Source: Amphiscolops sp. MND2022
Lineage: Eukaryota
NCBI GenBank assembly: GCA_964187785.1
Contig: OZ076411.1
Location: 86,614,001-86,678,000 of the forward strand
DNA: 64,000 nt
Direction: 5' to 3'
This document shows, in pieces, positions 17,881 to 53,883 of the stretch (position 1 is the stretch's first letter; every line of letters starts with the position of its first letter). The notes below the pieces were generated by a model. The model saw nothing but the letters and a program-made list of their open reading frames with translations. It made no database searches and had not been told where the DNA came from. The translations under genes and the position numbers were made by a program.

Positions 17881-18021
17881 TCTTCAAAGATATCAAGATT
17901 CTCGCAAAGTATTCAATGTCAAGACCAGCTCAAAGTGCAAAGAAATGTCAAGTAACGTTAAGCCAAGTAAGGAAAAAGAGCTCTGAAACAGCAACAAAAA
18001 ACTACGTGATCAAAAGCCAAA

Positions 18022-27970: not shown

Positions 27971-29461
27971 TGTCGCACGCATGGATAAATTTCAGTTCTA
28001 CTTTTTTACAGTTTCCTCTTTTAGAGGGGAATTCCAAATTTGTTATCCGTATTAGTCAGCTCAGCTGTTACAACATTTTGCAAAGTGCTTTTCAGACAAC
28101 TGTTGTTTTATTGAAGTAGAACAAGTAGAAAAGTCTCAATAACTTAATTTTTTGTAATACCGAAAAGAAAGTGCCTTGCGTGTACGTGCGAACAAAGGAA
28201 CTTGCGTGAGTAAGTGCAAGGCAGTGAATGTAAATGAGCTCTCTGAACTATAAAAAAAAAGCATATGTTAGCAAACTTGTTGAATTACATAAAAGAGCTG
28301 AACTTCAGGACATAATAAAATTCTTCAGACATAACAGTTTTTATTCAACTGTTTACAATATTCAGTCAACTCACCAAATTTATTTACCAGCAACAGAAGT
28401 AATAACTTAGCTATTTCAATCTAGGGCACAAATTGATGAATACATTTAGCATCGAAGGAAATTCATAGTAATTTCCTTTAGTTCGAAGAAAGTTTTTTAC
28501 GAAAAATTCAGTTTCGGTGTTGTAATAACTTAGACAACACTATTTAATTTTATAGTCTCTACTCCTTTTCTTTTAGGAATAGCATTAAGACTTTTTTGAA
28601 TATGGGAATGGTAAAGACAAATTGGTTAATAGGGGAAAACCGCAGAATTAAATCAGCGAAATTATTCTAAGATATAATTTTAACAACCGCAGAATTGAAT
28701 CAACGGAATTATTATAAGATAGAATCCGCGGAATTAAATCAGCGGAATTATTCTAAGATATAATTTAGTTAGAAAGAGGGAGAGTAAAAAAATCTCCTCT
28801 AAAAGAAAAAATCTAAGATATTTTCGACTCACCAAACTGGAGACCAAGTTGAATTGAAGAGAATTTTCTAAGATAGAAAATTCTGTTGGGGAATAGAGAA
28901 AAAGCAAAGATAAGTTTTTACTTGAGAGAAGGGAGAAAAGGAGGAAAGTTAGACTTTATAAGTCAGAGATAAGGCAAGTGCAAAGTAAGCAAAGAGAAAG
29001 TTGGGGAATAAGAGTCGAGGGAGAGAAGGGGAAGAGTATGTGTAAGAGAAGTGGAGGGATTGAGAAGTTGAGGAGAGAGAGAGCTGTAAGTTGAGCTCAG
29101 CCGTCCGGCGGGAAAGAATGAATCTCCAGCCTGTGCGCGCGGTATAAAAACAGTTCAGCACAGCTGTTGAAGTGCCTGGCCGGCATGTGTTGCATGCTAC
29201 CAATGGTAGCTCAGCTTTAAAATTCAAATATCCGCGGTAAGAAATAGAAATTTTCACTAGTGCAATTCCTTTCCCGTAGTATTCCATTACTTATTACTCC
29301 ACTTCGAGGCCGCCGCGTTATGGCCGCCGCCATATTTACTTCAACTTTCCACTCTCCACACAACGTTAGTTCAAGTTTTATGTTTCTCTTTGCACGTGTT
29401 ATTTTTTTATAATAGAAAGCGCCTTTTGGTGATTCGTTAGAGCGTTAGTCATAGCGCGACA
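27971..29461 (-). repeat. 3' LTR of the gypsy element
   Basis: Copy of 44270-45760 at offset 16299; minus-strand TATAAAG at 28954-28960 and AATAAA at 28340-28345 and 28107-28112. Confidence 0.97.
28640..28766. repeat. Three ~40-47-bp repeats inside the LTR (also 44939-45065)
   Basis: ccgcagaattaaatcagcg(a/g)aattattctaagata unit starting at 28640, 28687 and 28726. Confidence 0.8.
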
Positions 29462-29473
29462 GCTCACCCCCCT
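29462..29473 (-). promoter_or_regulatory. Polypurine tract
   Basis: Minus-strand AGGGGGGTGAGC directly abutting the 3' LTR start. Confidence 0.8.
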
Positions 29474-29575
29474 GGCAGGGTGAAAAAGCAACAACTTTAC
29501 TAGAGAAATTTGGGGTCAGGTCAAGAAAGAGGTATTAGGTGAAAGAGCATGAGGGAAGGGGGACATGTTTTAGCA

Positions 29576-30478
29576 CTAGGGTTTAGAAAAAAGGGGTCTG
29601 TCAAATTGAATTTGGATTATGACGGAGTCATTGTTTAGGAAGGCTTCTCTAAAGTTTACCAGGAGTTTTGTGTGCGCGATGAAGTCTTCTCTCATCAGTC
29701 CTGGGAGTGTGTAGTCGTTCTTGTGCGGGTCTTCATACTCTTCTGTTTTGGAGGGATAGGGAAAGGAGATGGACCATTTGTTGTTCTTGTCTTTTTGGTC
29801 TATGATTGAGACGATCAATTGTTGCTCGAAAGGCCACGTTCGTGGGAGAGTGAAGTCGCTGGGGTGTAGATCACAAGAAATTGAGGAATGGGTTCCGCGG
29901 AAGATGTTGGCGCCATAAGGGAATAGTCTGAGGGATATTTTGCAGCCGGTTAGGTGGGTAGTGTAGATAGGGCTAGTGAAGCTATTTTTGATGTTGTTCA
30001 ACGCATCATTCGGGGAGGTCTTTGCTTTTCTGTATAGTGTGGAAAAAGCGGGTATGTGCCAAAGGATGGGTTCACCGCTTCTTGCGTCTAATACGTTGGT
30101 TTTGTTGAGTAGGGCGCCTTGAAACTTGATTGTCGCTTGTAGATCGGATATTGTGAGTTCCAAGTGATTACATTTAGTCCGCGTTTCTTCTGTCAAGTTT
30201 TGGAGTTGTTTCATTTCACTAGCAAGCTTTGTTCTAGACTGTTTTATGTCGGTTATGGGGAACGATTTCCTTAGGATCGGGGTTACCTTTTCACTTTGTG
30301 GGCTAGTTGAGACTTCTAGTTCAGCGATCCATTTGTTCAATCTTTTGATTCCCTCGAGTGTCTCGAGGTCATCTTTATTCTCTGTCCTGGATAGAGGTGG
30401 CCAGTCGTTAGCTTTGGGGAAGTAAGGAGTGCTTTTTGGGATGAAGGGGATAGCGTCTGGGTTTAGCCTCCGATTCAT
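29576..30478 (-). CDS. PAM2 motif + coiled coil + TRAF-type MATH domain protein (300 aa), retroelement accessory gene
   Basis: N-terminal RRLNPDAIPFIP (PAM2 LNPxAxxFxP); heptad region LASEMKQLQNLTEE...LELTISDLQATI; TRAF-C motifs GEPILWHI, FTSPIYTT..GCKISLRLFPYG...RGTHSSI, WPFEQQLIVSIIDQ, FIAHTKL, FLNNDSVIIQIQFD. No RING or zinc fingers. Confidence 0.9.
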   Translation of the reverse strand: MNRRLNPDAIPFIPKSTPYFPKANDWPPLSRTENKDDLETLEGIKRLNKWIAELEVSTSPQSEKVTPILRKSFPITDIKQSRTKLASEMKQLQNLTEETRTKCNHLELTISDLQATIKFQGALLNKTNVLDARSGEPILWHIPAFSTLYRKAKTSPNDALNNIKNSFTSPIYTTHLTGCKISLRLFPYGANIFRGTHSSISCDLHPSDFTLPRTWPFEQQLIVSIIDQKDKNNKWSISFPYPSKTEEYEDPHKNDYTLPGLMREDFIAHTKLLVNFREAFLNNDSVIIQIQFDRPLFSKP

Positions 30479-31077
30479 TGTGCTGAGATGGCTCTTAGGG
30501 GGACCGTTAGTCTTTGTCCCTTTAGGGCTGGGTTCTCTATGGTGTACTCTTGTCTCTTGTTATCCCAGAAAACGATTTTCCAAGTTGAGAATTGTGGGAG
30601 GAGAGTGTATTTCAACTCTGTGTTGAATCTGGGTTTCTTAACGTGTCTGGCTCGTTTAGTGAAGTACTCCCGCTTGTGTTGTTTCTTCAGTGGCGTGTCA
30701 TCTGTTATTTTGTCATTCCATTGTTGTTGGTGTTTCCTGGGTAGTGCCCGTCTTATGTCTTTTCCGCCGAAGCGGGGTGGATGTTGGGGCGATCGAGGTG
30801 GATGTTGAGTTGATGGGATAGGCGCTACCTCTTCTGTAAATGACAGCGGAAAGGGGAGTTGTAGTGATGTCGTTGGAGAGGGTGTTGTTGTTAGGGCGCT
30901 TGGAATCGGAGAAGGAACTGTTGAGTCTGGGGGATCTAGGAGAAAGGTAATAGTTGTGGGAGAAGCAGTTGACAGCAGGTCAGAAGGTGATAAGGGTTCT
31001 ATCTGCAAGTCGTCTTCTAAGATAGAGTTAGGGATGTCGTCGTCCAGGTTTGGGAGGTCGAATAAGGGTTCTAAATT
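30475..31077 (-). CDS. AUG-less open frame (~200 codons): acidic/Pro-Thr-Ser-rich N-part, basic NLS-like segment, small beta-rich C-terminal domain; probably a spliced exon
   Basis: Open from 31077 to TGA 30475 with no Met (the track start at 31008 is TTG); tttag acceptors at 31078 and 31071; stop overlaps the next AUG (AUGA). Confidence 0.6.
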   Translation of the reverse strand, partial: NLEPLFDLPNLDDDIPNSILEDDLQIEPLSPSDLLSTASPTTITFLLDPPDSTVPSPIPSALTTTPSPTTSLQLPFPLSFTEEVAPIPSTQHPPRSPQHPPRFGGKDIRRALPRKHQQQWNDKITDDTPLKKQHKREYFTKRARHVKKPRFNTELKYTLLPQFSTWKIVFWDNKRQEYTIENPALKGQRLTVPLRAISAQ

Positions 31078-31108
31078 CTAAACGTAAACTACGAAATGAG
31101 ATAATAAT

Positions 31109-33256
31109 TCATATTGGAGCAACAAAGCTCTGTACCGAGGGATATAGTGATTCCTCTTTTTGTTTTAGGATTTGGAGTTCTACTCCTTTTTCTTCGTCTT
31201 CTGTTTTTACCCTTTTGTCTTCGATGCTATCCTCGAAAGGGGCCCGCGGGGTAAATACGGAAGTTAAAACAGAGGTAAAGAAAAGGTTATACGAAGCACT
31301 GAGCAAGGTTTTAGTGAAGCTCAGTGTGTTACCCGTAAGGTGACGAAGTTCGAAGTAGCGGAAGACTAGTACCGTGATATCTATGACGAACTTGATAAAA
31401 AGGAAAGCGCCAAAGTACGCTCCGCAGAGTTCTAGTACATAAGATATACTTCCGAATGTTTCGAGGAACTGATTTTTAAAGTAGTCGGGTGAAATCATTC
31501 CGTCGACATAGAAATCTGTACGAGGTGCGTAATACGCGAAGGATTCTGGTCCGCTGTGGGCCATGGAGGGTATGATGAGCTCTCTTGAGAACTTCTGGAG
31601 GGCATTACGTGATGCGGCGCTGATGAGGATGTTGTCCCAAAACTCGGAGAGTTGCTTGGGAGTGTACATTCCCGCGTCCTGTGATCCTGGGAAAGATCTG
31701 GTAATCATTGGCTGGATGTCTTTGGGTCCGAAGATAGCAGGCCGGTCCCGATGTTCGGGTGAAGGTGTAAGGGTGAACCAGGAGTCCTTGTCTTCCATGT
31801 CCAGTTGGAAGAGGTTCTTAATACGATCTGTGCAGTTTTGTACGTTCGCGTTAGGATATGTTTGTCGGGTTATGGGGTCTACAAAGGCGACCACTCCCTT
31901 GTAGAAGATTGGTATGCGGTCGTAGCATTGGTTCATCGTGTGAAGAGGTGAGTGGGATTCCGGGCAGTGGTAGAGCCATGCGAGGCTACCATCTGTGTTC
32001 AGGAACATCGAGCGATTTCCCGTGAGCATGTATCCGGCGAGTCGTGGGTTTTCCATGGATAACATCAGGATGGTAAGGATTTGTGTTCGTTCTTGCTCAC
32101 ATTGAGCTTTCAATAGCTGGATCTCTGAAGCTTCGAGTAAGCGGGTGCTCTCAAAGAAGAGATAATCTAACTTGGTTCCTTGGTGGAGTTCGTAATCCAT
32201 GTTGAGATAATGTGGTGTGTTGGGGTTGGAGTCGCTGGGGCCTCTGAAGAGGTGGAGTCTGCCATTACCAGAACCATCGTTGGGTGAGTAATATTGAAGT
32301 TTGGAGGTTTCTCCCATGGAGATGCCGAGTCGTCTGCCAGAAGTCATGTCGAAGCCACCAAATTGGGTCGAAACGTAGAGGGATTCGTAATTGGTAGGGT
32401 AGACATCATCGGGTTTGTTGCAGTATTTCTGTGGCCTGTTGTATATTTCGAATAGGAACTTGGTAGTGGAGTCGTTGCCGCTAACTATATAGTAGTTAGA
32501 GCCATGTTTGATCATATTCACTATTTCTTTTCTGTGGACTGCGAGCACGCAGTTATCTGGCTCTGCCCATGTATAGGCGTACGGGTCCAATGACGTGGTT
32601 TCGCAGCCGAGTTGTTCCAGGGGGCAGGGGAGAACCATCTGGAAGGGTGTGAGGATTTTCCCGTCTCTGGTTTTGACTGATAATTCTACGTCTTGAATAT
32701 GAGATTCGAAGGTTTCGCGTTTAATCCATCCGCCTGTCTTGCACTCATTACGGGTATCAGGGTCACGTACTCCATCCCAACTTTTTCCGTATTTGGCGTT
32801 TCTCGTCTGTACTTGTTTGACTCCTTTCTTAAATTTGAGGGGTTGTCCATGGATCATGACTTCTTTGCCTTCGCCCATGGCCTTACAGGTTTCGGGTGAC
32901 AAGGAAATATCGCTGGTGATTCCGTTGTGTAGGATTGACATACTGGAGTGGTCATTATGACCACAATGCCATTCTTCACTCTGGTGTTTCACACGGCACA
33001 TAGTAGCGTTGATAGTGCGACGAAAGTGTTTAGTGTATAACGTCACGCTAGCACGACTTACTTCTAAGTTTTCCGGGGCCACATTGCATTGCTCTACTTG
33101 ATTTAAGGCGTAGAGCTTATTTTGTGTCATTTCGCCGCAGTCGAAATGAGTTACTCGCAATTTTTTAGCAACGCTAGCGAGGTTTGGCGTTGAACGTTGT
33201 GAGTTCACAACGGGCGCGAAATTGGCGCATAAGAAGAGTAAGAAAAATAATTTCAT
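31109..33256 (-). CDS. env: Envelope glycoprotein, chuvirus-G-like / class III fusion type (715 aa)
   Basis: Signal peptide MKLFFLLFLCANFAPVVNS; HFDC..x..LYALNQVEQC; CRVK..x..HCG; MDYELHQGTKLDY; QCEQERTQILTILMLSMENPRLAGY; DGSLAWLYHCP; QCYDRIPIFY...FVDPITR...NC; C-terminal TM ISYVLELCGAYFGAFLFIKFVIDITVLVF. Confidence 0.88.
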   Translation of the reverse strand: MKLFFLLFLCANFAPVVNSQRSTPNLASVAKKLRVTHFDCGEMTQNKLYALNQVEQCNVAPENLEVSRASVTLYTKHFRRTINATMCRVKHQSEEWHCGHNDHSSMSILHNGITSDISLSPETCKAMGEGKEVMIHGQPLKFKKGVKQVQTRNAKYGKSWDGVRDPDTRNECKTGGWIKRETFESHIQDVELSVKTRDGKILTPFQMVLPCPLEQLGCETTSLDPYAYTWAEPDNCVLAVHRKEIVNMIKHGSNYYIVSGNDSTTKFLFEIYNRPQKYCNKPDDVYPTNYESLYVSTQFGGFDMTSGRRLGISMGETSKLQYYSPNDGSGNGRLHLFRGPSDSNPNTPHYLNMDYELHQGTKLDYLFFESTRLLEASEIQLLKAQCEQERTQILTILMLSMENPRLAGYMLTGNRSMFLNTDGSLAWLYHCPESHSPLHTMNQCYDRIPIFYKGVVAFVDPITRQTYPNANVQNCTDRIKNLFQLDMEDKDSWFTLTPSPEHRDRPAIFGPKDIQPMITRSFPGSQDAGMYTPKQLSEFWDNILISAASRNALQKFSRELIIPSMAHSGPESFAYYAPRTDFYVDGMISPDYFKNQFLETFGSISYVLELCGAYFGAFLFIKFVIDITVLVFRYFELRHLTGNTLSFTKTLLSASYNLFFTSVLTSVFTPRAPFEDSIEDKRVKTEDEEKGVELQILKQKEESLYPSVQSFVAPI

Positions 33257-33336
33257 TGTTGAAATTCTTCAGTCTGTTTTTGAATCAACCGTGTAATCGC
33301 TCCCTGTTAAAGAATCAGTTTAAGTGTTTAGTAGAG

Positions 33337-33788
33337 ACCGTAAAGAGGCAAGCCGTAATATCAAACCGGCAGCTTAGCTGGCACAACACTAAGCGGAGGT
33401 TAAAATTTTATAGTAGTAACCTCACTACTGTTAAAACGTGCCGAGGGGAACGATAAGTATTTTATTATTTCAGGGAAATAGGTGTGTGTTCCAGAAAGGA
33501 GGATTCGTAGTAAGGCCGTAAAAAGGCAAGTCGTAATATCAAACCGACAGCTTAGTGGGCACTAGCACTAAGCGGAGGTTAAAATTTTATAGTAGTAACC
33601 TCACTACTGTTAAAAAAGTGCCGAAGAGTAGGTTAATTATTGAAGCTTTAGTATATTTTATTATTGAGGATCCGTTATAAGGCCGTAAAAAGGCAAGCCG
33701 TAATATCAAACCGGCAGCTTAGTGGGCACTAGCACTAAGCGGAGGTTAAAATTTTATAGTAGTAACCTCACTACTGTTAAAAAGTGCC
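33337..33788 (-). ncRNA. Three tandem copies of a ~107-nt structured cis-RNA module (double pseudoknot plus two hairpins) upstream of env
   Basis: Copies at 33337-33442, 33515-33622 and 33682-33788; complementary segments AGUAGU/ACUACU, GAGGUU/AACCUC, GCUUAGUG/CACUAAGC, GGCAC/GUGCC, GCCG/CGGC; compensatory change GCCG/CGGC to GUCG/CGAC in the middle copy. Confidence 0.75.
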
Positions 33789-33833
33789 AAAATAGGAAGT
33801 TAAAAGAGACTAACTTCAACCATTGCTGAAAGT

Positions 33834-34178
33834 TCAATTGTAGTTGTCACGGATTGATTGTAGACTGGGAGAGGTTTTGTTTCGTCGTCTCAATTCGAGG
33901 AAGTCAATGAGCTTGTTGAGGAGGAACAGTGTTAGAGGGTGGATGTGGTCGAGATAGGCAATTTGCCTATATTCCTTTAGTGCGAGTGAGAGATCAGTAG
34001 CCTCTTGGGAGTTGGTGTCAACTGGGATGAGCCAATGTCCTGGGTTTTGTGGTCGGAGGCTATGGAGTTCGATTTGTAGTGAAGGTGCGTTTTCTTTCCA
34101 AGCGATAGAGAGAATTTCGAGAAGTGTATTTGTTTCAGGGTGGCGCCAGAGAAACTTGAGCTGAATCTTAAACATCAT
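33834..34178 (-). CDS. Small accessory ORF A4 (114 aa), unknown function
   Basis: ATG-initiated, overlaps the A3 stop by 11 nt, same A/C-rich sense-strand composition as gag-pol, shares a motif pattern with A1-A3. Confidence 0.65.
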   Translation of the reverse strand: MMFKIQLKFLWRHPETNTLLEILSIAWKENAPSLQIELHSLRPQNPGHWLIPVDTNSQEATDLSLALKEYRQIAYLDHIHPLTLFLLNKLIDFLELRRRNKTSPSLQSIRDNYN

Positions 34179-34563
34179 AAGTGTCGACTAGGCTGTGAAG
34201 GTATTTGATTCTAACTTCTTCTTCAAAGGGGTTGGAGGTGAGAGTGATGTCCATAAAGTAAACCAAGTCGTCGAAAGCCTTGTCTTTGAGGACTGCAGGG
34301 TGTTGGAGTATATATTGCTTGAACGATAGGAATAAGTAAGCGTATTCCTTGGAGCCGAAGTGAATAGGGAAGAGGACTAGAGCTTCTTTGTCTTCTGGTG
34401 TGAGTATACGCACTTGAATTGCAGAGGTAGTGATCTCGTAGAAGATTGACTGTATTTCGTATTGGCCCTTGAGTTGTATGGGGGTCCAAGGAACAGGAGG
34501 TTGAAACTGTGTGTGGAAGTAGTAATTATTTCCGCGGAACACGGCGACTGCGGGAGAGGACAT
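34168..34563 (-). CDS. Small accessory ORF A3 (131 aa), unknown function
   Basis: Starts in a TAATG stop-start overlap with A2. Confidence 0.7.
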   Translation of the reverse strand: MSSPAVAVFRGNNYYFHTQFQPPVPWTPIQLKGQYEIQSIFYEITTSAIQVRILTPEDKEALVLFPIHFGSKEYAYLFLSFKQYILQHPAVLKDKAFDDLVYFMDITLTSNPFEEEVRIKYLHSLVDTYDV

Positions 34564-34784
34564 TAAATGACTGACTTGGCTCTTGTGACGACTTCAGTAG
34601 GGGTGTTGTTATATAGCAAGCTCTCCAGTAGAGGGTAGATGGGTGATGCTGGCACACAAGTGTAGGTTTCACTTTCTTCTTCAGCTATTGCGTATGCTTG
34701 TATGATGATGTTTTGCGTTGAGGGTTCCTTCTGGATATCGGTGATTTGTGAAAGACGGTTGTCAATTTTGAAGATTATGATCAT
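34563..34784 (-). CDS. Small accessory ORF A2 (73 aa), unknown function
   Basis: ATG directly preceded by acceptor-like tatctcacag; ends in TAATG. Confidence 0.6.
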   Translation of the reverse strand: MIIIFKIDNRLSQITDIQKEPSTQNIIIQAYAIAEEESETYTCVPASPIYPLLESLLYNNTPTEVVTRAKSVI

Positions 34785-35029
34785 CTGTGAGATACTTCAG
34801 TGTTCACTGTTGTTCAAACATAGCAAATCTGAGAATGGAATCATCAGTTATTTCATTGCCTTTGGGAACTTATGTATTTGAAACATATGAACATGACCCT
34901 TTTTGGGGCACATGGTTGCATGCAGAAAAGTAAAGAATCGACATTGGTCTGTATTGTGTGATAGTGAGGTATATGATTAAATAAATAGGTGTTATAAATT
35001 TCTATTACTAGGTATTTATATAGTTTTAC

Positions 35030-35731
35030 ATGACTTTTGATAAGCACAATGTTGTGTTTAGAATGAGCAACAATCAGAACTTTTCGGACTACTACGAGGA
35101 GTCCTCGACCGACGAAGAGTCGGGGAATGGCCCGACAACTGTGTCTTCTAGTTCTTCTGCAGCTGGTCCGTCCTCTGCTGCTGTTAGTGCTGTGTCCTCC
35201 GCTTCGTCTTCTGCTGGTCGGCCCTCTACTGCTGTTAGTTCTGTGTCCCCTGCTTCTTCAGCAGGTCCGTCCTCTAGTGGTGGGTCGTTCGTGGCGGTTG
35301 TGGCCCCGAGGACTGACAGTATTGTGCCTCAAGCGCCTGCTACTATTGCCCGGGGAGAGCTGGAGAACCCGGCTGAGCAGAGCTTTATGGGGCTCTATAC
35401 CCGCCGAGACGTGAACCGCCTGGAAAACTGGGCGTCTCTAACCAGTTCTCTTCGGGGGACTCCAGGGTTCTCTGTCTCGGGGCCTCCCGGTCCCAATTCA
35501 TTATTTAGTTTCATGCGGGCTAACCTGGGGGCCCGTTGGGAGCAGACCCTATTGTCCCCTCTTGGTGAAATCATAATTTTCCAGTTGCGAGCCTACATAA
35601 ACGGCTTTTCGCAACTGACCAGTTTCGAGAGGGGACAGTGGTCCCGTCTGTATTCTTTGTGGACCATGGGAGAGCGGGCGGCTCAGCTGCGGCGCTTGGC
35701 GGAGCGAGGAGGGTTCCTGGAGATTGAGTAG
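35030..35731 (+). CDS. Antisense accessory ORF (222-233 aa; Ser/Ala-rich N-half, predicted helical C-domain)
   Basis: 702-nt open frame opposite to all other element ORFs; second ATG at 35063 directly follows tttag. Confidence 0.65.
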   Translation: MTFDKHNVVFRMSNNQNFSDYYEESSTDEESGNGPTTVSSSSSAAGPSSAAVSAVSSASSSAGRPSTAVSSVSPASSAGPSSSGGSFVAVVAPRTDSIVPQAPATIARGELENPAEQSFMGLYTRRDVNRLENWASLTSSLRGTPGFSVSGPPGPNSLFSFMRANLGARWEQTLLSPLGEIIIFQLRAYINGFSQLTSFERGQWSRLYSLWTMGERAAQLRRLAERGGFLEIE

Positions 35732-35888
35732 GCGTACATCGCCTCTCATCTCCAGGAAATTACTATTTTTCTATGCTTCTGTGCTTGTGGCTTTTCGTAA
35801 GTCATGTTCGGGATTGCACAAAAAATATCGATAAACTAAAGTAAAGTAAATTAATGGTAATACATCGTTAATAGGTTAAATGTGCCGG

Positions 35889-36275
35889 CTAGGAGCTAGG
35901 TGAGGAAATAGTGGAGCAGCAGAATAGGTCCTTCTGAGTATTAGGTGGTGAAGGTTGTAGGTCAGGAATTAGGGTAGGCATGTAGGATAAGAGTTCTTCT
36001 AGGATAGGGTCGTGATGGTTGACTGCATGGTATGCTAGGTGTTGATATAGTTGAGCAAACGTTTTTGATTCTGGGTGAACATGAAGATTTGATTTTCGGG
36101 GCGTAGGTTGTTTGTGGGGGCTCGGGTCTGGGTCGTTGGAGTAGAAGCAAATTCTAACTAGTTTGTTTGTGTAGGTCCAGTAGATTTTTGTGATTGTAAC
36201 GTGTAGAACGTTTAAAGATTGGAGTTCTCGTGGAACTTGCCATGGTAGGTTTAGGTAAACTTTATGACAAGGCAT
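35889..36275 (-). CDS. Small accessory ORF A1 (128 aa), unknown function
   Basis: ATG 8 nt after the pol stop; shares a motif pattern with A2-A4. Confidence 0.65.
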   Translation of the reverse strand: MPCHKVYLNLPWQVPRELQSLNVLHVTITKIYWTYTNKLVRICFYSNDPDPSPHKQPTPRKSNLHVHPESKTFAQLYQHLAYHAVNHHDPILEELLSYMPTLIPDLQPSPPNTQKDLFCCSTISSPSS

Positions 36276-36283
36276 GACGCAGA

Positions 36284-39200
36284 TTAGGCTTTGTAGCCTA
36301 CTCGAGTTTTTTGTCGAAGTATGGACAATGGTGCTGGTTGATTGGGTTGTGCTCGCTGATAGCGGGGATTTCTCTCGACGTGACTTGCCACCGCTCGTCT
36401 GAGTTCTTGTAGGGGTGTCAATGATTTAGTCGAAGTCGTCGGAGTGGTAGTCAAGGGTTCGGGTGTTATTTGTTGCGTCAGTGTTTGGATAGGAGTAGTT
36501 GAACCAGGAGGACGGGATGTAGTAGGCTGATCCGGAGTTGTTGGTGTTCCCAACCGGTGATTTTCTGGGGAAATAATACCAGAGTCGGTGCTCTGGGGAG
36601 TTCTCACTCGTTTTTGTGCGGTGGTCTGTCTTTGTTGGTTTCGGACTGGTAAAATGCAGAGATCCCCGAGTATCTGTGGTTCTGAAACATTAAGTCGTTC
36701 TATTCTTCCTTTGACAAAATTGTTATAGAAATCCGTGTCTCCACGGTAGGGAGTTGTGTATTCTTCTATAAGAGGGGGGAGTGTTTCCTCTTTGGGAAAG
36801 TATTCTATTAAATGATTTCTATGGACAGTTCGGAGATTTTCGGGGTTCTGATCGTCTTTTATTTGGTATGTTGTGTTGGTGATTCTCTTGGTAACCGTAA
36901 ACGGTCCTAATCGCAGTTGTTGAAGTTTTTGACTTTTGGAGAGGTCTTTCCGATGGTTTTCTAACAAAACCTTTTGTCCGATGTTGAGATGGCTGCCTAG
37001 TTTAAATCTGTTTCTGTAGGCATGAGATCGAGCTGTTTGTTTTCTGCATTTTTCGTAAGTGGACGAATAGATTTTCTTGAAGGCGGTCTCTCTTTCAAGC
37101 AGGTTTTGAGATAGTTGAGGTCTTAATAGTCCATTCAGCAGTTCGTTTTTAACTTGGTTTTCGCTGTGGCAGTGAGGAGGCAGTCCGTTGCAGAACTGTG
37201 ATCTGCAATTCTTGTTTTTATTACGGTATAGACCCAACTTAAGACTCATAGGTATCTGTGGTTTATTGCAGAAGACTATTTCGTATGGTGTCTTTCCAGT
37301 GGTATAGTTGACGCTTGTGTTGTGGGCAAATGCGAATTTAGCAGCTAGTTGGGCCCAGTTGTTTCCTGAGTCGTTTAAGAAGTTTCTCCAGTACCTTGCA
37401 ATGTGTTGGTTTTGGGTTTCCACTTTTCCGTTAGTCCAGGGTGAGTGTGCAGTTCTTGGCCGGAGAGTGATGCCTAACTCTTTAGTCCAATTGACGAATT
37501 CAGTGTTTACGAAAGCCGTTCCTCTATCGTGTATGATAGACTGCGGTATCCCATAGTGCATAATCCATTTTTCCATAGCGTTGATTGTTGACTGTGCACC
37601 TGTGTCTCTAACTGGGTATGCCATCAAGTAGCGTGAAAATGCGTCGATGATGAGGAGGCAATGTGAATTTCCACGACTGGGAGGGTTGAGTGGTCCCTTG
37701 TGATCGATATGAACAGTTCTGAATACTTGGGTCTCGGTTTCACAGTCCTCCAGTGGGACTTCGTAATTTCTTCTTTGTTTGGATTTGTTAGATTGGCAGC
37801 TAACGCAATCTTGTGTGAGGGCACAAATCCAGTCGTGCATCCCGGGCCAGTAGTAGAATCTTTTAGCATTTAGGTAGGTTTTCTCGGCTCCCATATGGCC
37901 TCCGAGGTCGTTGTAGTGTCCTAATCGGAAGCAGGCGAGAAATAAGGAGAGTGGTAAGCATATTCGAAGATTTTCTTCTTCCGTCTTATCTGTAGGTTCA
38001 TTGTAGCACAGTAGGTTTCCGTTTTCTTCTATGGTCAATCTATCAAACTCTTGGGAATAGCGCATGAGTCCTTTAGAGTGTTGTAATTCTGGTGATTTTG
38101 GCGTAGGCCTGTTTCCGGTTTGTATCCATCGTCGAACCACACTGAGCACCGGGTCATTGATCTGTTCTTGTAAGATTGTTGTGACGTCTAGATCCACTTC
38201 TTTTGATATTTTGTCGAGTTGACTGACGAGCTCTCGGGCTGGGGTCTTGTGTTTTTCCGTTGAATTTGTAGGTAGACTGAGGTGTTCTATTGCCTTTGCA
38301 TTTTCGGGAATACCTGTGTTACGTGCGGTGAGATCTTCAGTGTTGAGCTCGTAGTTGGTCTCGTTTACTTCATGACTTTGGTTGTCTGTGCAGGCTTCAT
38401 CATCTGCATCGCTATTGATGGAGCTGTAAGTATTCTGAGACGAATCGGAAGTGCTATCCCTTGTCCCGGATCTGATTTTTAGCTCTGAAAATTTTCCTAG
38501 TTCTCTTCCAGCGTCGAGACAACTCTGTGCTGACTCTATTTTCGGCAGGTTAGGTTCCTCGTAGATATTGTTAACTGTGAAGTTATTTCCATCGTTTTGT
38601 AGGTGAAGAATTTTTCGTTCATCTCCTTTTTCGTACAGGATGGGGTAGAAATCGTTTTTTGACGTTTCTTCGTTTTCTTCGTGTTTTATTTTGTAGTGTA
38701 TTTGGGTTCCATGCTCGTCGAAGAAGTGAATATCGTTCGGTAGGATTTTGTGACTGAGTTGATGTTTTTTGTGTTCTTCTATCGATACGTTTCTGCTGAG
38801 TATATCAGGGAAGGCTAAATTGCTTCCTGGGGTCCAAATTATCTTGAGATTTGGGAATTTAGAGATTATTACTTGGTACCTGAAGAAACGCGGTGAAACT
38901 TGTCCTTTTCGTCCCCAGAGATAAAGAATTGGTTTGTGGTCACAATATAAGTAAATTGGAAAGGGAGATCCAATGATATAGTGTTCGTAGGTTTGTAATG
39001 CTGAGACTATTCCACATAGTTCTCTATGTAGAGTAGACATTTTTTGTTCTTCTTTTGCGAAGACTCTGGAATTGAAAGAAATGATCCGTTTCCCTTCTGG
39101 AAATTGTTGTATGAGGATACATCCTGTCCCTACGTTGGAAGAGTCGACGTGTATATGAAAGGGATATTTTGTTGAAGGTACTGCAAGAACTGTGTCTTCG

Positions 39201-41791
39201 CTGATTCTTTTCTTTATTTGTTGGAAGAGGTCTTCATGTTCTTGGTTCCAACAGAAATTTGTATCCTTTTTTGTGAGTTCGTAAAAGGGTCGACTATCGA
39301 CGTGAAGGTTCTTGATGTAGCAGCTGTAGAAACCTAAGGCTCCCAAGAAGCTTTTCACTTCGGTTTTGGTTTTTGGTGATTTGAGATTATGTAGGTCTCT
39401 TACTCGTTTAGCTACGGGTTGTATTCCTTCTGCTGCAATCACATGTCCCAAAAACTTGACTTTCCTCAAGAAGAAGAGTGTTTTGTCAGGTGCCGCTTTT
39501 AGTCCCGCTTTCCGTAGTAGGTTATGGTATTCTTGAATCACTGTGAACATTTCTTGTTTACTTTTCGCTTGCATCAACGTGTCGTCTATGTAGGTGATTG
39601 CTTGTTTCTTTTTAATGAGAGGTTCGAAGTGAATTGTCATCATTCGGCTAAAGAAGCTTGGTAACCCTTTAAGTCCGTAGAATCCTCTGGTGAAGGTGTA
39701 TTGTTTCCCGCCTATGATGAAGCTTGTAAGTTTTTGTGTAGGCTCGTCTAATGGGACTTGGTGAAATGCACAGGAGAGATCACTTACTGAGAAGATGTTC
39801 CCGTTGATTAGTGTCATTATGGTTTGGATCGGTTCTAAGGGCCAGGAGTAGTTTGTTAGATCCGTCACTGAATTTAGGTATCTTGCGTCTATGATCAGTT
39901 TTACATAGTCGTGTTTTGGTTGTAGTATAATAGGATTTACGAATAAGGATCCCATTTCGTCGTCATCGCCCATCTCTCTGATAATATCGGCGTCTTTGAG
40001 TTGTGTGAGTAGCTTCTCTAACTTTTCTCTTAGGTGAAGTGGTACTTTGCTGGGTCTCTGTCTCTTCAGGATTGCTCCAGGTTCGAGTTTGATGTTAAAT
40101 TTCTGTCTGGTTTTTCCTACGTCGAATTTGTGTTGGGAGTATACATCTCTCGCATCCATTAGTTGGTCTATTAGGAGCACAAGTTCCTCGTCAGTAAGGT
40201 CTGAGTAGCGAAAGTCGAATTCTTTGATGTATTGCACTGCTTCTTTGTTCTGGTACTGAAGGTAATACTCGATCAGTCTTTCGTTGTCTTCTTTTTGCCT
40301 GAAGATTTTAAATTGCTCATCGCAGGGTGGTTGACAAGACTTTGCGTCACTCGTAAAGTCTGTCTCCAGCTCTCTATGTTTAAGGTGAAATTGCTCGGAA
40401 AATTGTTGTATCTCGTCTTCCAGCGCGTATTCGGGGTCTCCTCTCGTAGTCATAGCATAGACGTCTAGTTCATTTCTTGTATAAATTCGGAGTTGTATTT
40501 CCGAGTAGGCAAAAACATCTTGAATAATTTGTGTCACATCTTGCCATTGGAAATCTTCTAGTTCTGACGCTTCTCGTAACATAGAAATGGTCTTGATACA
40601 ATTCATTTTGGCGTGTGCTTTTAGAGTCTCTAGCGTTTGGACTAAGATTTGTGGGTCGATTTTGTCTTTTGATTTAGCTTTTGTGATTAGGACGTATATG
40701 AATCGTTTTAGATTCATGTCCCAGTAAGGTATTGTATCCCCTTTGAGTGGTTTCTGTTTTGCGCAAGATTCTTTTAACAAGGGTATGTTCGTTAGGATTT
40801 CTTTCGAGAAGCCTTTGGCTGGCTTCAGATCTGCCGGGACAAAGATCATGATGGAGTCGGGTCTGCTGAGGATTGTAGTAGAATTTCCTCCTTCTATTCT
40901 GATGCAATCGTTCATATCTTGTGAAGGGATGGTGGAGTGCAACAGGAAACAGTCATTGTATTCTTCGTTTTCGTTTAGGATAGCGTAGGCGAGTTCCGTA
41001 GGGTTTCTAACTTGGTATTTTGGAATTTCTTGGTCTAATACGTCGAGCAGAGAGTATCCAATAGTTCCTTTTACTAGGGTGATTGTATGGTTTTTGTTAT
41101 TTTCCATGACGATTGGCAAAGTCTTCTCAAATCTTGTACAAAGGACATTTATAAAATTTAGTCCTGTAGAGACTGCTTTTCTGTTGGGTAGGAACGTAGA
41201 TCCGGGAGGAAAGGAGTTCTTGGGGTTTTCCGGTGCAAATTTGTAACATCTTGTCGTCTTTGGTTCGATATACATTGAGTGAGGAATTCGGACTGAGAGT
41301 ATTTGTGATACGTAGGGGTAACATTTGTTGAGTTGTAGACTGCCATAGCAGAAAGTATTTATAGGTCTTTTGAGTTCTATGCCAGGAAGATCAAAGTGTA
41401 TTTTGTTAACTTGTTCTTGACAGAAGTTCATTCCAAGGAGGTTTTGGGTCTTCATCTCTGTTATCCAGACTGTCAGTGGGAAGTTATGTTGTCCATCGGA
41501 ATCGTAGTAGAGTTTAAGGGTGATGTATCCCATCATAGGGATGATCTGCCCAGAGTAGTTCCGTGTTGTGTTGTTACTTCTGCTGAGTTCGAGGTCTTGT
41601 TGAAATTGACAGAGTTCTCTAAAGGTCCTGTAGTTAATGATTGAAGATGTTGCCCCAGTGTCTAGTAGAAATTCGATTTCTAAGCCACTATCTTTTTGTG
41701 AGTCTCCGGCAGCAAAATAATAAAGATTAAGACTAAATTTTAGTGGGGCAGTGCTGCTGTTACGGTTTTTCGGAGACCTTAATAGTTTAAA
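36284..41791 (-). CDS. pol: Pol (protease, macrodomain, RT, RNase H, integrase with GPF/Y tail), expressed by -1 frameshift
   Basis: Frame open from 41791: FLLDTGATSS (PR, near 41660), RT DLSCAFHQ / FYGL / YIDD / FLGH, RNase H HVDSS / RELCG / YCDHKP, IN HYNDLGGHMG..CVSC, HIDHKGP, IHDRGTAF, NGKVE, LGPFTV. Confidence 0.96.
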   Translation of the reverse strand, partial: FKLLRSPKNRNSSTAPLKFSLNLYYFAAGDSQKDSGLEIEFLLDTGATSSIINYRTFRELCQFQQDLELSRSNNTTRNYSGQIIPMMGYITLKLYYDSDGQHNFPLTVWITEMKTQNLLGMNFCQEQVNKIHFDLPGIELKRPINTFCYGSLQLNKCYPYVSQILSVRIPHSMYIEPKTTRCYKFAPENPKNSFPPGSTFLPNRKAVSTGLNFINVLCTRFEKTLPIVMENNKNHTITLVKGTIGYSLLDVLDQEIPKYQVRNPTELAYAILNENEEYNDCFLLHSTIPSQDMNDCIRIEGGNSTTILSRPDSIMIFVPADLKPAKGFSKEILTNIPLLKESCAKQKPLKGDTIPYWDMNLKRFIYVLITKAKSKDKIDPQILVQTLETLKAHAKMNCIKTISMLREASELEDFQWQDVTQIIQDVFAYSEIQLRIYTRNELDVYAMTTRGDPEYALEDEIQQFSEQFHLKHRELETDFTSDAKSCQPPCDEQFKIFRQKEDNERLIEYYLQYQNKEAVQYIKEFDFRYSDLTDEELVLLIDQLMDARDVYSQHKFDVGKTRQKFNIKLEPGAILKRQRPSKVPLHLREKLEKLLTQLKDADIIREMGDDDEMGSLFVNPIILQPKHDYVKLIIDARYLNSVTDLTNYSWPLEPIQTIMTLINGNIFSVSDLSCAFHQVPLDEPTQKLTSFIIGGKQYTFTRGFYGLKGLPSFFSRMMTIHFEPLIKKKQAITYIDDTLMQAKSKQEMFTVIQEYHNLLRKAGLKAAPDKTLFFLRKVKFLGHVIAAEGIQPVAKRVRDLHNLKSPKTKTEVKSFLGALGFYSCYIKNLHVDSRPFYELTKKDTNFCWNQEHEDLFQQIKKRISEDTVLAVPSTKYPFHIHVDSSNVGTGCILIQQFPEGKRIISFNSRVFAKEEQKMSTLHRELCGIVSALQTYEHYIIGSPFPIYLYCDHKPILYLWGRKGQVSPRFFRYQVIISKFPNLKIIWTPGSNLAFPDILSRNVSIEEHKKHQLSHKILPNDIHFFDEHGTQIHYKIKHEENEETSKNDFYPILYEKGDERKILHLQNDGNNFTVNNIYEEPNLPKIESAQSCLDAGRELGKFSELKIRSGTRDSTSDSSQNTYSSINSDADDEACTDNQSHEVNETNYELNTEDLTARNTGIPENAKAIEHLSLPTNSTEKHKTPARELVSQLDKISKEVDLDVTTILQEQINDPVLSVVRRWIQTGNRPTPKSPELQHSKGLMRYSQEFDRLTIEENGNLLCYNEPTDKTEEENLRICLPLSLFLACFRLGHYNDLGGHMGAEKTYLNAKRFYYWPGMHDWICALTQDCVSCQSNKSKQRRNYEVPLEDCETETQVFRTVHIDHKGPLNPPSRGNSHCLLIIDAFSRYLMAYPVRDTGAQSTINAMEKWIMHYGIPQSIIHDRGTAFVNTEFVNWTKELGITLRPRTAHSPWTNGKVETQNQHIARYWRNFLNDSGNNWAQLAAKFAFAHNTSVNYTTGKTPYEIVFCNKPQIPMSLKLGLYRNKNKNCRSQFCNGLPPHCHSENQVKNELLNGLLRPQLSQNLLERETAFKKIYSSTYEKCRKQTARSHAYRNRFKLGSHLNIGQKVLLENHRKDLSKSQKLQQLRLGPFTVTKRITNTTYQIKDDQNPENLRTVHRNHLIEYFPKEETLPPLIEEYTTPYRGDTDFYNNFVKGRIERLNVSEPQILGDLCILPVRNQQRQTTAQKRVRTPQSTDSGIISPENHRLGTPTTPDQPTTSRPPGSTTPIQTLTQQITPEPLTTTPTTSTKSLTPLQELRRAVASHVERNPRYQRAQPNQPAPLSILRQKTRVGYKA
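40480..40910 (-). other. TARG1/OARD1 (Poa1p)-like macrodomain inserted in Pol between PR and RT
   Basis: RFIYVLITKAKSKDKIDPQILVQTLETLKAHAKMNCIKTISMLREASELEDFQWQDVTQIIQDVFAYSEIQLRIY aligns by eye with the C-terminal half of human TARG1 (RYIYYLITK...LQKSLEAMKSH...[34 protein letters not shown]). Confidence 0.82.
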
Positions 41792-43233
41792 GGGCGAATA
41801 TCGGCGACAGAGTTCACCGAGTAATCTGTTTCGAGAAACTGTACGGTGTTATGTCTTCCCATGTCGTTAGTTCTAGGGAACCTTTGTTCGTAGGTTTGAG
41901 TGGGGGTGTTTGGTCTTTCGTTTCTGTTTTGTGGTCTATTAAAGACTGAGTTATTCCTTGGTGGAAGAGGCTGTATGTTGCGGTTGAAGGAGTTAGGCTG
42001 GTCTCTGTTGAAGCTGAACGGAGATCTTGCTCTTTGGGGCCCAGGAGAAACACTTCTGGAATTGTTAGAATTGTTTAGAAAAGGTCTTCTTCCTTCTTGT
42101 GAAAATCTTTGGTTACCAGGACTGAATCTTGTATTCATAGGTCGGCGTTCTGGGTTGAAATTTCTTCTTTGTGGTCTATCATATTGGTTCCGGGCAGGGT
42201 TTGACTGCATGGCTCCAGCAAGTGCTAGTTGATGTGCCACAGCCATATGTTTTCTGATTTCTGAATCGGGTAGTCTAGTTTGGAATCTAGAACCATGTCC
42301 AGGTCCAGTTCTTTTGTTGTAATCGTTGGTGAAAGTTATTCGTCTCTCTGGGTTGGATTCATTTTGAACTTTCTTGATTTCTTCATCTCTCATCTTCTTT
42401 CTGCACCAGTTAGGCGTATGCCCATTTGTTCGGCAGTAGCTGCAAAACCTGGTGGCCATTCTACGTCCTGTTGCGTTCGGATCAACAGTTTTCTCTATTG
42501 CATTGATAGTGTTGTTCGTCTGTTCTTTGATTTGTAGCTTGATTCCTTTGATGTCTTCTCGCAATTCTTGGATGAGTGGGTCTGCGTGTGATTCTCCACC
42601 GGTGAGAGAGGTAGTTACTGTGTAAGAAAGGTCTTTGTTTATTACAGCTTGAGAGAACTGCTCCCAGGTTGCATTCGGATGATCCATTAAGTATTCGTGT
42701 GCCTTTTCCCTCAGTTTCGGGGGTCGAAGGCCTCTCAGTGAGTAGTCAATGCACCTCTGTCTTCTTTGTCTGTCTTGTGCTGCTCTTTCGGCGTCTCTAT
42801 TGTTCTGTGCGACTCCGGCTAGATCATCTGGCCATCCTTTTCCGACTACTATTTTAATTCTGTGTAGGAAGTTCTTTATTTCTTCTCCATCTCGTCTGAT
42901 GACGTGTTCGGCTTCCATTCTGTGTCTAAATTTGTTTCTGCCATCTGCGAATCGCGTTATGAACCTCTCTCTGATTTCTACCCAAGTGTTAGCGTCTGTG
43001 ATGCTGGTCTCGAACCACTCTGCTGCGGGTCCTCTTAATAGTGTAGCAAAATAGGATTTTCTTCTGAAGTTGTAGTCATCAAGTGCTGGTCCGTTGGCCG
43101 GGGTATCACCGTGAGAAAACCGGAACTTCTTTTCAATGAGCTGTATGAATTGTTCAGGATCTTGATCTGGGTCTGTTCCTGTGAATTGGTCTCGGCCTAG
43201 GTCTGGATAAGCCAAGTAATTTTGCGCAGCCAT
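41779..43233 (-). CDS. gag: Gag (484 aa) with one CCHC knuckle
   Basis: Retrotransposon capsid-like LRGPAAEWF...W.EIRERFITRF; CSYCRTNGHTPNWC (CX2CX4HX4C); Arg/Asn/Pro-rich tail. Confidence 0.93.
   Translation of the reverse strand: MAAQNYLAYPDLGRDQFTGTDPDQDPEQFIQLIEKKFRFSHGDTPANGPALDDYNFRRKSYFATLLRGPAAEWFETSITDANTWVEIRERFITRFADGRNKFRHRMEAEHVIRRDGEEIKNFLHRIKIVVGKGWPDDLAGVAQNNRDAERAAQDRQRRQRCIDYSLRGLRPPKLREKAHEYLMDHPNATWEQFSQAVINKDLSYTVTTSLTGGESHADPLIQELREDIKGIKLQIKEQTNNTINAIEKTVDPNATGRRMATRFCSYCRTNGHTPNWCRKKMRDEEIKKVQNESNPERRITFTNDYNKRTGPGHGSRFQTRLPDSEIRKHMAVAHQLALAGAMQSNPARNQYDRPQRRNFNPERRPMNTRFSPGNQRFSQEGRRPFLNNSNNSRSVSPGPQRARSPFSFNRDQPNSFNRNIQPLPPRNNSVFNRPQNRNERPNTPTQTYEQRFPRTNDMGRHNTVQFLETDYSVNSVADIRPLNY
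41785..41791 (-). promoter_or_regulatory. -1 ribosomal frameshift heptamer U_UUA_AAC
   Basis: Gag reads CCT TTA AAC TAT TAA; the heptamer is in the correct X_XXY_YYZ phase and the -1 frame is the open pol frame. Confidence 0.8.
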
Positions 43234-44248
43234 TGTGAGCTATTGAGGTTATAAAAGATAGAAGATGAAGTAAGGAAAAATAAGCCAAAGACTCTATGAG
43301 GTATGATACTCCTGGTTTTTGAGAGTAACTATAAAGAGCGGAAGTAAAAATTGTTTGTACAATGATTCTAACAGTGATAATTATTAGGCAGGTCTGACAA
43401 AACATATACTCCGTAATTCGCTGCTAGTAAAAATGAAATTAGCGCATCTCAGCCCAGGATAGGCACATTCCCAGTATTTATTACTGAAATTTCAAAATTT
43501 TTAGGGGATACTTACAAATCCCGCTTGTGTTACGATTACCGTAAAAAGGGTAGTTCGGAGTATACCAATCCTCCGAGTTAAGCTTAAAAGATTGGAGAGT
43601 ACAGTCGGTCCAGTAGGTCTTCAATTCGCTAGACTAGCCTTTCAATGGCTTTTGTACAAGTAGTACTAGAACTAACCAACAGAGGGAGTCACTCTCGTCC
43701 TCAGGATTAAGTGCGCGGGGCCAAGATCACTATCATGCAAACACTCGGGTACTATCACTAGAATACTAGGTTTCCCACTTGGAATGCTACACAGGTTCCG
43801 GGACACCCACTGGGCTCACGGCCTTCAACCAGTCTCCGAGGAGACCTAGGCGGGCTTTTACTTAATGTGTGTCCGTCTGGACTTGAGTGAACTTCCCAAC
43901 TGTAAGTTTAAATTCCGTGTTAGAGGGCAGTTTCATTCTTGTTTAGGACCGAATGTAGTCTAGCATTTCCGTAAAAATAGATCAGCGCTAACCTTTTTGT
44001 GGATTGAGAGGACTAAGTTGGGTAGAGCACAGTCTCTTCCAACGGCTGTTAAGCTGGAGAGATTCTATTAGAGTATTTACTAGCAGTTCTGTAATTTATA
44101 TAGACTAAAGAAGCCACATATTGGGGCAGTAGGAGAAAAAAGAAAATCAGAAGTAAGATTAAGAGAAATAGGTAGTTAACCCTAACTTCAGAGAGTAGGG
44201 ATTCGAACAGATTGCTCATTTACTTCTCTATAGTAAGAGAAAAAGGAA

Positions 44249-44266
44249 GCCTCACTGGTCGCACCA
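44249..44266 (-). promoter_or_regulatory. Primer-binding site (18 nt)
   Basis: TGGTGCGACCAGTGAGGC begins 3 nt after the 5' LTR end; complementary to a tRNA-like 3' end ...GCCUCACUGGUCGCACCA. Confidence 0.85.
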
Positions 44267-44269
44267 GTT

Positions 44270-45760
44270 TGTCGCACGCATGGATAAATTTCAGTTCTAC
44301 TTTTTTACAGTTTCCTCTTTTAGAGGGGAATTCCAAATTTGTTATCCGTATTAGTCAGCTCAGCTGTTACAACATTTTGCAAAGTGCTTTTCAGACAACT
44401 GTTGTTTTATTGAAGTAGAACAAGTAGAAAAGTCTCAATAACTTAATTTTTTGTAATACCGAAAAGAAAGTGCCTTGCGTGTACGTGCGAACAAAGGAAC
44501 TTGCGTGAGTAAGTGCAAGGCAGTGAATGTAAATGAGCTCTCTGAACTATAAAAAAAAAGCATATGTTAGCAAACTTGTTGAATTACATAAAAGAGCTGA
44601 ACTTCAGGACATAATAAAATTCTTCAGACATAACAGTTTTTATTCAACTGTTTACAATATTCAGTCAACTCACCAAATTTATTTACCAGCAACAGAAGTA
44701 ATAACTTAGCTATTTCAATCTAGGGCACAAATTGATGAATACATTTAGCATCGAAGGAAATTCATAGTAATTTCCTTTAGTTCGAAGAAAGTTTTTTACG
44801 AAAAATTCAGTTTCGGTGTTGTAATAACTTAGACAACACTATTTAATTTTATAGTCTCTACTCCTTTTCTTTTAGGAATAGCATTAAGACTTTTTTGAAT
44901 ATGGGAATGGTAAAGACAAATTGGTTAATAGGGGAAAACCGCAGAATTAAATCAGCGAAATTATTCTAAGATATAATTTTAACAACCGCAGAATTGAATC
45001 AACGGAATTATTATAAGATAGAATCCGCGGAATTAAATCAGCGGAATTATTCTAAGATATAATTTAGTTAGAAAGAGGGAGAGTAAAAAAATCTCCTCTA
45101 AAAGAAAAAATCTAAGATATTTTCGACTCACCAAACTGGAGACCAAGTTGAATTGAAGAGAATTTTCTAAGATAGAAAATTCTGTTGGGGAATAGAGAAA
45201 AAGCAAAGATAAGTTTTTACTTGAGAGAAGGGAGAAAAGGAGGAAAGTTAGACTTTATAAGTCAGAGATAAGGCAAGTGCAAAGTAAGCAAAGAGAAAGT
45301 TGGGGAATAAGAGTCGAGGGAGAGAAGGGGAAGAGTATGTGTAAGAGAAGTGGAGGGATTGAGAAGTTGAGGAGAGAGAGAGCTGTAAGTTGAGCTCAGC
45401 CGTCCGGCGGGAAAGAATGAATCTCCAGCCTGTGCGCGCGGTATAAAAACAGTTCAGCACAGCTGTTGAAGTGCCTGGCCGGCATGTGTTGCATGCTACC
45501 AATGGTAGCTCAGCTTTAAAATTCAAATATCCGCGGTAAGAAATAGAAATTTTCACTAGTGCAATTCCTTTCCCGTAGTATTCCATTACTTATTACTCCA
45601 CTTCGAGGCCGCCGCGTTATGGCCGCCGCCATATTTACTTCAACTTTCCACTCTCCACACAACGTTAGTTCAAGTTTTATGTTTCTCTTTGCACGTGTTA
45701 TTTTTTTATAATAGAAAGCGCCTTTTGGTGATTCGTTAGAGCGTTAGTCATAGCGCGACA
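44270..45760 (-). repeat. 5' LTR of the gypsy element
   Basis: 1491 bp, no differences from 27971-29461 noticed by eye; followed by TSD GCAG. Confidence 0.97.
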
Positions 45761-50638: not shown

Positions 50639-50859
50639 GTATGAGACGTGTTCCATGAGTTCAATATTGACTGGTAAAATCAAATTTTTAGCAGAATCAC
50701 TGGAAAATCACGCCTTGAGAGATGAAACTGAACAATCTTATTCCGAAAAGTTGATTTCAAAACGTAGTTTTAATCAGAGCTTCCACAGTTCCAAAGAACT
50801 TCTACAAAGACTAGATGAAATCTACTATCTTTCACTGAAAACCTGGTGTGCATTAATTT

Positions 50860-53810: not shown

Positions 53811-53883
53811 CTGGAAAGTTCAAAATTGGGGAAATTATGACACGAATACGTGATTTTGCTTGCAGCTTTTCGAAGAGCAAACT

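Follow-up and report, generated by a model that had tools for sequence, protein, structure and literature searches.

The systems described so far that lie closest to the locus treated here, a Ty3/gypsy-type long terminal repeat (LTR) element on contig OZ076411.1 of Amphiscolops sp. MND2022, are retroelements of invertebrates and the complex retroviruses. The 'ancient errantiviruses', which possess an envelope (Env) of the HSV/gB type, are intact multicopy elements of marine invertebrates and share with this element the gag-pol-env order (Chary and Hayashi 2026, PMC13524379). The giant gypsy elements Burro/GYPSM1 of planarians share a mononegavirus-like Env, MATH/TRAF cargo and accessory open reading frames (ORFs) (PMC6431247). 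Cer1 of C. elegans is an LTR element that produces a spliced mRNA for CERV, a protein needed in genomic RNA export (PMC10309623). Env-bearing LTR elements of marine invertebrates also include the Tor elements of Oikopleura, in which env is spliced or internally promoted (PMC4402516), while the insect element Anakin carries a chuvirus glycoprotein captured from Monjiviricetes (PMC7642597; named in PMC12440569). Among vertebrate elements, fish foamy-like endogenous retroviruses reach 17 kb (PMC6431247).

On the minus strand, the element occupies positions 27971-45760 of the window, i.e., the whole stretch of 64,000 nucleotides analysed (positions 86,614,001 to 86,678,000 of the contig, assembly GCA_964187785.1), and it contains ten genes in total. 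The original prediction set it apart from typical Metaviridae, with gag-pol and sometimes env. The extra genes stand, but the contrast is weaker than claimed, since Env-bearing (PMC13524379) and MATH-cargo (PMC6431247) gypsy elements were already known. The reading that we favour, and consider rather probable, is that of an enveloped Ty3/gypsy element with seven selected accessory genes, which likely regulates itself in the manner of complex retroviruses through a spliced protein, E, whose intron holds env and a set of pseudoknot RNAs.

Structure, copies and selection

The features of Metaviridae are present: LTRs with TG...CA ends, a target site duplication (TSD) of the 4-6 bp class, a primer binding site and a purine tract (Table 1). 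The equal LTRs, the GCAG duplication, the primer site and the tract had all been proposed from the sequence, and alignment of the LTRs over their full length agrees with this, the tract being short. The LTRs of the pair are spaced 16.3 kb apart, and LTR length in sister copies varies from 1,454 to 1,661 nt. The 17-mer of the primer site has 319 exact matches in the 1.07-Gb host genome versus 0 for a control; a matching tRNA-Met gene was called in one of the four loci examined (9 pattern matches overall). Within the LTR there is a triple 44-nt repeat (window 28637-28766). Neither gag, pol nor env contains internal stops, and with the seven accessory ORFs located between pol and the 3' LTR the count of about ten ORFs made earlier holds.

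Table 1. Features of the element in window coordinates, listed from its 5' to its 3' end
Feature	Position	Strand	Description	dN/dS
5' LTR	44270..45760	-	1,491 nt; TG...CA; 0 differences from the other LTR; GCAG outside both	
Primer binding site	44250..44266	-	17 nt; complementary to 3' end of tRNA-Met(CAT); 3 nt from 5' LTR	
gag	41779..43233	-	484 aa; Retrotrans_gag, E 3.8e-4	0.05-0.10
Slippery heptamer U UUA AAC	41785..41791	-	predicted -1 gag-pol frameshift; in gag/pol overlap	
pol	36284..41848	-	1,854 codons stop to stop; protease, macrodomain, reverse transcriptase (RT), RNase H, bridge, integrase (Pfam); best PDB match Ty3 Gag-Pol, E 2.7e-56	
Macrodomain within pol	40466..40858	-	TARG1/OARD1-like; E 3.4e-10 to TARG1	0.06-0.09
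ORF A	35889..36275	-	128 aa	0.05-0.15
Antisense gene AS	35030..35731	+	233 aa	0.21-0.35
Conserved non-coding block	34829..34859	-	upstream of B, ends in candidate splice acceptor; 48 genome matches vs 0 for control; also in metagenome locus L075	
ORF B	34563..34784	-	73 aa; stop overlaps C start; homolog in L075	0.03-0.06
ORF C	34168..34563	-	131 aa	0.02-0.08
ORF D	33834..34178	-	114 aa	0.07-0.10
Predicted mini-exon	33809..33823	-	ATG and two codons, donor GTTAGT, phase 0; just after D stop	
Structured RNA	33352..33778	-	three copies of 81-82 nt; H-type pseudoknot and two hairpins	
env	31109..33256	-	715 aa; Monjiviricetes-type fusion glycoprotein; PF24664 (Monjiviricetes_fusion), E 5e-31	0.03-0.04
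ORF E	30475..31077	-	200 codons, no Met; predicted second exon	0.06-0.12
ORF T	29576..30478	-	300 aa; PAM2-like motif, predicted coiled coil, TRAF-C/MATH; ATG overlaps E stop	0.17-0.21
Purine tract	29463..29473	-	short, AGGGGGGTGAG; identical in 10/10 sisters	
3' LTR	27971..29461	-	1,491 nt; TG...CA	

The 6.8-kb accessory region has at least 18 full-length matches in the genome including itself, five of the others at 99% and twelve at 94%, as well as further partial matches at 74-100%; these counts rest on 23 scored of 481 candidates. In ten sisters inspected at both ends, the LTR pairs are 0-2 substitutions apart, with gaps of 0-55 columns, and nine of them possess their own 4-bp target duplication, the remaining one adjoining another element. 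All 17 full-length sisters keep ORFs A to E and T open, and 14 of them have an intact env. So many copies with their own TSDs and near-identical LTR pairs rule out an assembly chimera and indicate recent transposition: the element is young and multicopy, and the recent activity deduced earlier from the identical window LTRs is seen in its sisters too. In one sister copy (L059, near 42.09 Mb) a primer binding site directly follows the 3' LTR, suggesting tandem elements that share an LTR.

The ratio of nonsynonymous to synonymous substitution (dN/dS) was obtained by pairwise counting against three diverged sister lineages, with dS near saturation in places. The accessory genes gave values of 0.02-0.35 (Fisher p<1e-7 for all, as for env); in the comparison with a family of 75% pol identity they gave 0.10-0.42. 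Purifying selection is shown for all ten genes, and the seven accessory genes are confirmed as real. Their being broken or neutral in sister copies would have spoken for an ordinary env-bearing gypsy element with neutral captured DNA, or for a chimera. Four further ORFs that had been listed (112 aa in the LTR; 95, 106 and 113 aa antisense) are indeed shadows, with frameshifts, stops, lost starts or no match in sisters, as that explanation would have it. It is nevertheless refuted: strong purifying selection acts on seven ORFs, many dispersed copies bear TSDs of their own, and homologs occur in other samples. We regard it as hardly credible.

The predicted spliced regulator E and the repeated RNA

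The frame of E opens directly after TTTAG and lacks a Met in all 25 loci compared. A mini-exon followed by GTTAGT is found in 28/28 loci, which represent about six independent sequence types, one of them with different codons; the background of this pattern is 0.34% per 75-nt window. Mini-exon donor and E acceptor are both in phase 0. We infer a splice from the mini-exon (33823-33815) across env to position 31077 of E, and in close families the predicted intron encloses both env and the repeat RNAs. In distant families E has its own ATG, with a GTTAG donor 13-72 nt ahead of env and an AG ahead of E. Another candidate first exon, ending in a donor at env codon 66 (GTAAGT), is present in 4/6 close elements and absent from L035 and L037; the mini-exon fits better.

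The E protein begins with an acidic part (10 acidic residues in its first 35), followed by a Pro/Ser/Thr linker and a basic segment, predicted as a helix, with 17 basic residues in 101-150. Its domain is modelled as a helix plus five strands (predicted structure, pLDDT confidence score 84.9), for which Foldseek retrieved Spt5/NusG KOW and Tudor barrels, the top one being Spt5 (E 0.014). E is predicted to be a regulator with an SH3/KOW-like barrel. It belongs to no Pfam family and the ESM Atlas gave only unnamed clusters, under 0.9; 105 unnamed relatives occur among 50%-identity clusters.

The RNA repeats, which the original prediction described as a triplicated structure, were located between the mini-exon and env. 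In 16 distinct repeat units 94% of cells are paired, and in 9 of 24 pairs both partners changed; three of these nine belong to the pseudoknot helix. Of 500 shuffles, 0-2 attain such values, and controls that were slid drop to 23-58%, a generous control because the structure was drawn from the same, related sequences. Base-pair covariation is shown to support the structure. Against Rfam, no match was obtained at E<=1, neither to a known RNA family nor to a ribozyme. Stem-loop repeats were also observed in distant families, in element-sense coordinates at about 2020-2530 of L039 (8 matched) and about 2850-3600 of L043, L045 and L047 (2-4 each, strict pattern); a stem changes there on both sides, and the position in the element varies.

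E would bind the repeat RNA and thereby promote the export or expression of the genomic and env RNAs that keep the intron, in Rev/Rex fashion, a step to which we give somewhat less than an even chance. A regulator mRNA that lacks the response element, as Rev and Rex have it, agrees with the predicted splice in close families and not with the position of the repeats in distant ones. With the same genes and the same splice, E could instead be a transcription activator (Tat/Tas/Tax-like), the repeats serving env translation or RNA stability (by internal initiation or exonuclease resistance) or marking an internal promoter. The acidic N-end of E, its fold matches to Spt5/NusG KOW and Tudor barrels, and the position of the repeats directly ahead of env, with a TATAAA word inside, are in line with this, as is the internal env promoter of some Tor elements (PMC4402516). 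However, pair changes on both sides indicate an RNA structure and not a DNA site, and the repeats are within the predicted E intron in close families. We consider activation of transcription, the main alternative to the Rev/Rex-like role, unlikely.

A different explanation for the small ORFs starts from the host. The acoel spliced leader sequence has been published (PMC9911081), and a 25-nt piece of it has 2,663 matches in the genome with up to two mismatches versus 0 for a control. Some of these matches form 904-nt tandem arrays in which a GTAAGT donor is present. The host is therefore very likely an acoel, in agreement with the invertebrate host proposed for the element. The ORFs could be an operon-like cassette that is expressed mainly through trans-splicing of the spliced leader and through stop-start reinitiation, the element itself encoding no regulation. 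Besides the leader arrays, pyrimidine-AG sites ahead of B and AS and the stop-start overlaps of B/C and E/T argue in that direction. However, the leader exon has no AUG and ends with TAG in phase 0, so that it cannot start E and was discarded as the source of its start codon; moreover, selection acts on E, and a cis donor matches its acceptor. As a full account, the cassette is improbable; in the case of B and AS, spliced-leader processing may operate in addition to regulation by spliced E. In two loci (L078, L079) dispersed leader exons are fused to other sequence without a GT donor, and these may be retrocopies of trans-spliced mRNAs.

Several observations weigh against the self-regulated, enveloped element that we prefer. 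The donor GTTAGT is weaker than the host GTAAGT, and with a stricter cut-off of 8 pyrimidines in 12 only 7/25 E acceptors pass; the type found in the window has 7 in 12. Foldseek gave no match to E at E<=0.001. The tandem structured repeats of distant families have a different motif and are situated upstream of the env donor, outside the env intron. No furin motif is present in the Env sequence. Pairwise paralogy among A, C and D (see below) is weak, with hhalign E values of 1e-3 to 0.17. Finally, in metagenome locus L073 no small ORFs separate pol from env and the contig shows no MATH gene, indicating that the wider clade can do without most of the cassette. In layout, and probably in splicing, the element is complex-retrovirus-like.

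The encoded proteins

All 11 elements compared have the heptamer U UUA AAC, the most distant of them at 55% pol identity, and so does L073; pol would be made by a -1 frameshift. The order of pol domains is protease-RT-RNase H-integrase and a GPF is seen in the translation at the integrase end, which is the layout of Metaviridae. The best score of RT-RNase H is with Ty3 (115 bits; foamy virus 82, murine leukaemia virus 63). Retroviridae, Lokiretrovirus and Odin are marked by a tether domain together with a second RNase H. In the window the single RNase H directly follows RT and has its catalytic residues; a second one was not detected in the 251-aa bridge, which has no Pfam match and no RNase H match in a PDB sequence search. 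The macrodomain had been put forward as part of a host-modulation kit. In the alignment, GCGLD of TARG1 corresponds to ASELE in the window, placing a Glu at the G123 site, and the TARG1 G123E change is reported to abolish ADP-ribose binding and activity (PMC5928194). The macrodomain of the window family probably no longer binds ADP-ribose, which makes a role as a host-modulation enzyme doubtful in this family; selection nevertheless still acts on it (Table 1), and some distant families retain GCGLD.

Monjiviricetes_fusion was the sole Pfam family matched by Env, with no PDB sequence match, and Env is not of the retroviral type. By this test the element, which is of the Ty3/gypsy type, does not belong to Retroviridae. 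Its Env is probably of the same class, here PF24664, as the HSV/gB type of the 'ancient errantiviruses'. The protein has four N-glycan sites, a signal peptide judged by eye and, as membrane anchor, a C-terminal hydrophobic stretch starting near residues 603-619; an intact Env of the F or gB type with these two features is what defines an errantivirus in the wide sense, a group in which the element fits. With its Env, the element would be able to pass as particles out of somatic cells and into the germ line.

The TRAF/MATH domain expected in T is clearly recognized (MATH_2 E 9e-12; matches to TRAF5 and TRAF4 at E ~2e-7), and the protein has no RING. The PAM2 assignment was sustained in part: the motif is PAM2-like (E 0.009), scoring below the Pfam cut-off of 20 in the window (16.1 bits) and above it (20.7) in one of three sisters scanned. 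T would be a RING-less TRAF-type adaptor that competes in host TRAF signalling, and it may bind poly(A)-binding protein. It is the only accessory gene that looks host-derived, the other six having no named relative. An extra 176-aa ORF, MATH-like by eye and without Pfam match, lies between AS and B in L035 (7716-8243, minus strand), an element of the family at 75% pol identity.

As for AS, it is the sole open frame of six in 5/5 lineages, so its selection signal is no shadow of a sense gene, and the antisense gene proposed earlier is upheld. Its homolog in L075 has 41% identity (E 2.6e-28).

The small ORFs of distant families (~55% pol identity) are mutually paralogous, with hhalign E down to 1e-35 and the weakest links near 1e-4 to 1e-2. 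A profile of 57 such sequences, built without A, C or D, was compared with 899 shuffled or reversed controls (maximum 8.0 bits): 5/6 A and 4/6 D sequences score above all of them, and C, with 7.1 bits at most, does not exceed the controls. A and D are likely diverged copies of one duplicated small domain, and C is possibly a further member; they would be copies of an interaction domain. Membership of B is not supported. One distant-family member is modelled with four strands and three helices (pLDDT 82.6). A chromo-like fold, guessed by eye, found no support in PDB sequence searches, and an ESM Atlas search with C gave no usable match.

Elsewhere in the window there are a broken BEL/Pao-type element (DUF1759, protease, DUF5641; 18010-23504, plus strand), a 292-aa frame with an AIG1/dynamin-like GTPase N-terminus (49766-50644, plus strand), and tandem arrays with units of 61 nt and about 97 nt at 17410-17892 and 53845-54624.

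The wider lineage and known systems

Families at 91% and 75% pol identity retain the complete gene order, while two at ~55% keep env-E-T and have their own small ORFs ahead of env. Against one sister family, dS is 0.01 for env, E and T, 1.5 for RT and 3 for AS, an unevenness which shows that families have exchanged modules. Metagenome loci place the clade in other samples: L073 (RT 69%) contains gag-pol-env followed by two E homologs (9741-12095), and L075 the homologs of AS and B. When 61 of 9,084 candidates were scored in a genome search with the sequence P0004, the closest family stood at 59%, which hints at another host behind it. No relative was found in IMG/VR. In a quick RT-RNase H tree (55 rows from 114 collected, thinned at 88% identity, with no reference set or outgroup), a clade of 27 rows stands apart from the 28 others with SH-aLRT 100 and a branch of 1.11; every named sequence is outside it, at 32% identity or less. 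A broader reading, which we hold tentatively, is that a deep and so far undescribed acoel LTR lineage evolved the gene control of complex retroviruses independently of Retroviridae, with a regulator from a new SH3/KOW-like family, spliced across env, that acts on the tandem pseudoknot RNAs, and with an antisense gene, a TRAF decoy, duplicated small domains and modules exchanged among active enveloped families.

No description of the lineage or its gene set was found among the papers listed first in searches of a literature that left out most subscription journals and Repbase. As regards the 'ancient errantiviruses', the word 'accessory' is absent from the main text of the source and no acoel name was found in its text or seven supplements (PMC13524379). 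The RT of the window clade has its own long branch, in a tree whose rows do not include their sequences. Their LTR step dropped pairs more than 14 kb apart (PMC13524379), whereas the window pair is separated by 16.3 kb; this suggests that length-limited surveys miss the largest env-carrying elements.

In Burro, cargo and env are part of a polyprotein of ~4,900 aa, and env is placed between gag and pol (PMC6431247), whereas in the window element the small genes are separate, one gene runs antisense and a spliced regulator is predicted. Cer1 has one regulator (PMC10309623) versus seven accessory genes here, and CERV and E are likened by description. The likeness to Anakin (PMC7642597) is likewise one of description. 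For Tor elements, an accessory gene set is not among the features described in the available part of the source (PMC4402516). Troyka was rejected as a match, with its CG...CG ends, 3-bp TSD and no env (PMC12440569) versus TG...CA, 4-bp GCAG and env in the window.

Complex Retroviridae (deltaretroviruses, lentiviruses and foamy viruses) have in common with the element its size, an env-skipping spliced regulator (in the element a predicted one), an antisense gene and several small genes. They differ in that the RT-RNase H of the window is nearest to Ty3, with one RNase H next to RT, and its Env is not of the retroviral type. Likenesses to Rev/Rex and to HBZ belong to the general picture of complex retroviruses. 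For two protein families and one structured RNA of the element, the libraries searched contain no named relative. Sets of accessory genes and regulated splicing usually count as a trait of vertebrate retroviruses, and a young, multicopy gypsy lineage of an invertebrate, with seven selected accessory genes, offers a testable case of convergence with them.

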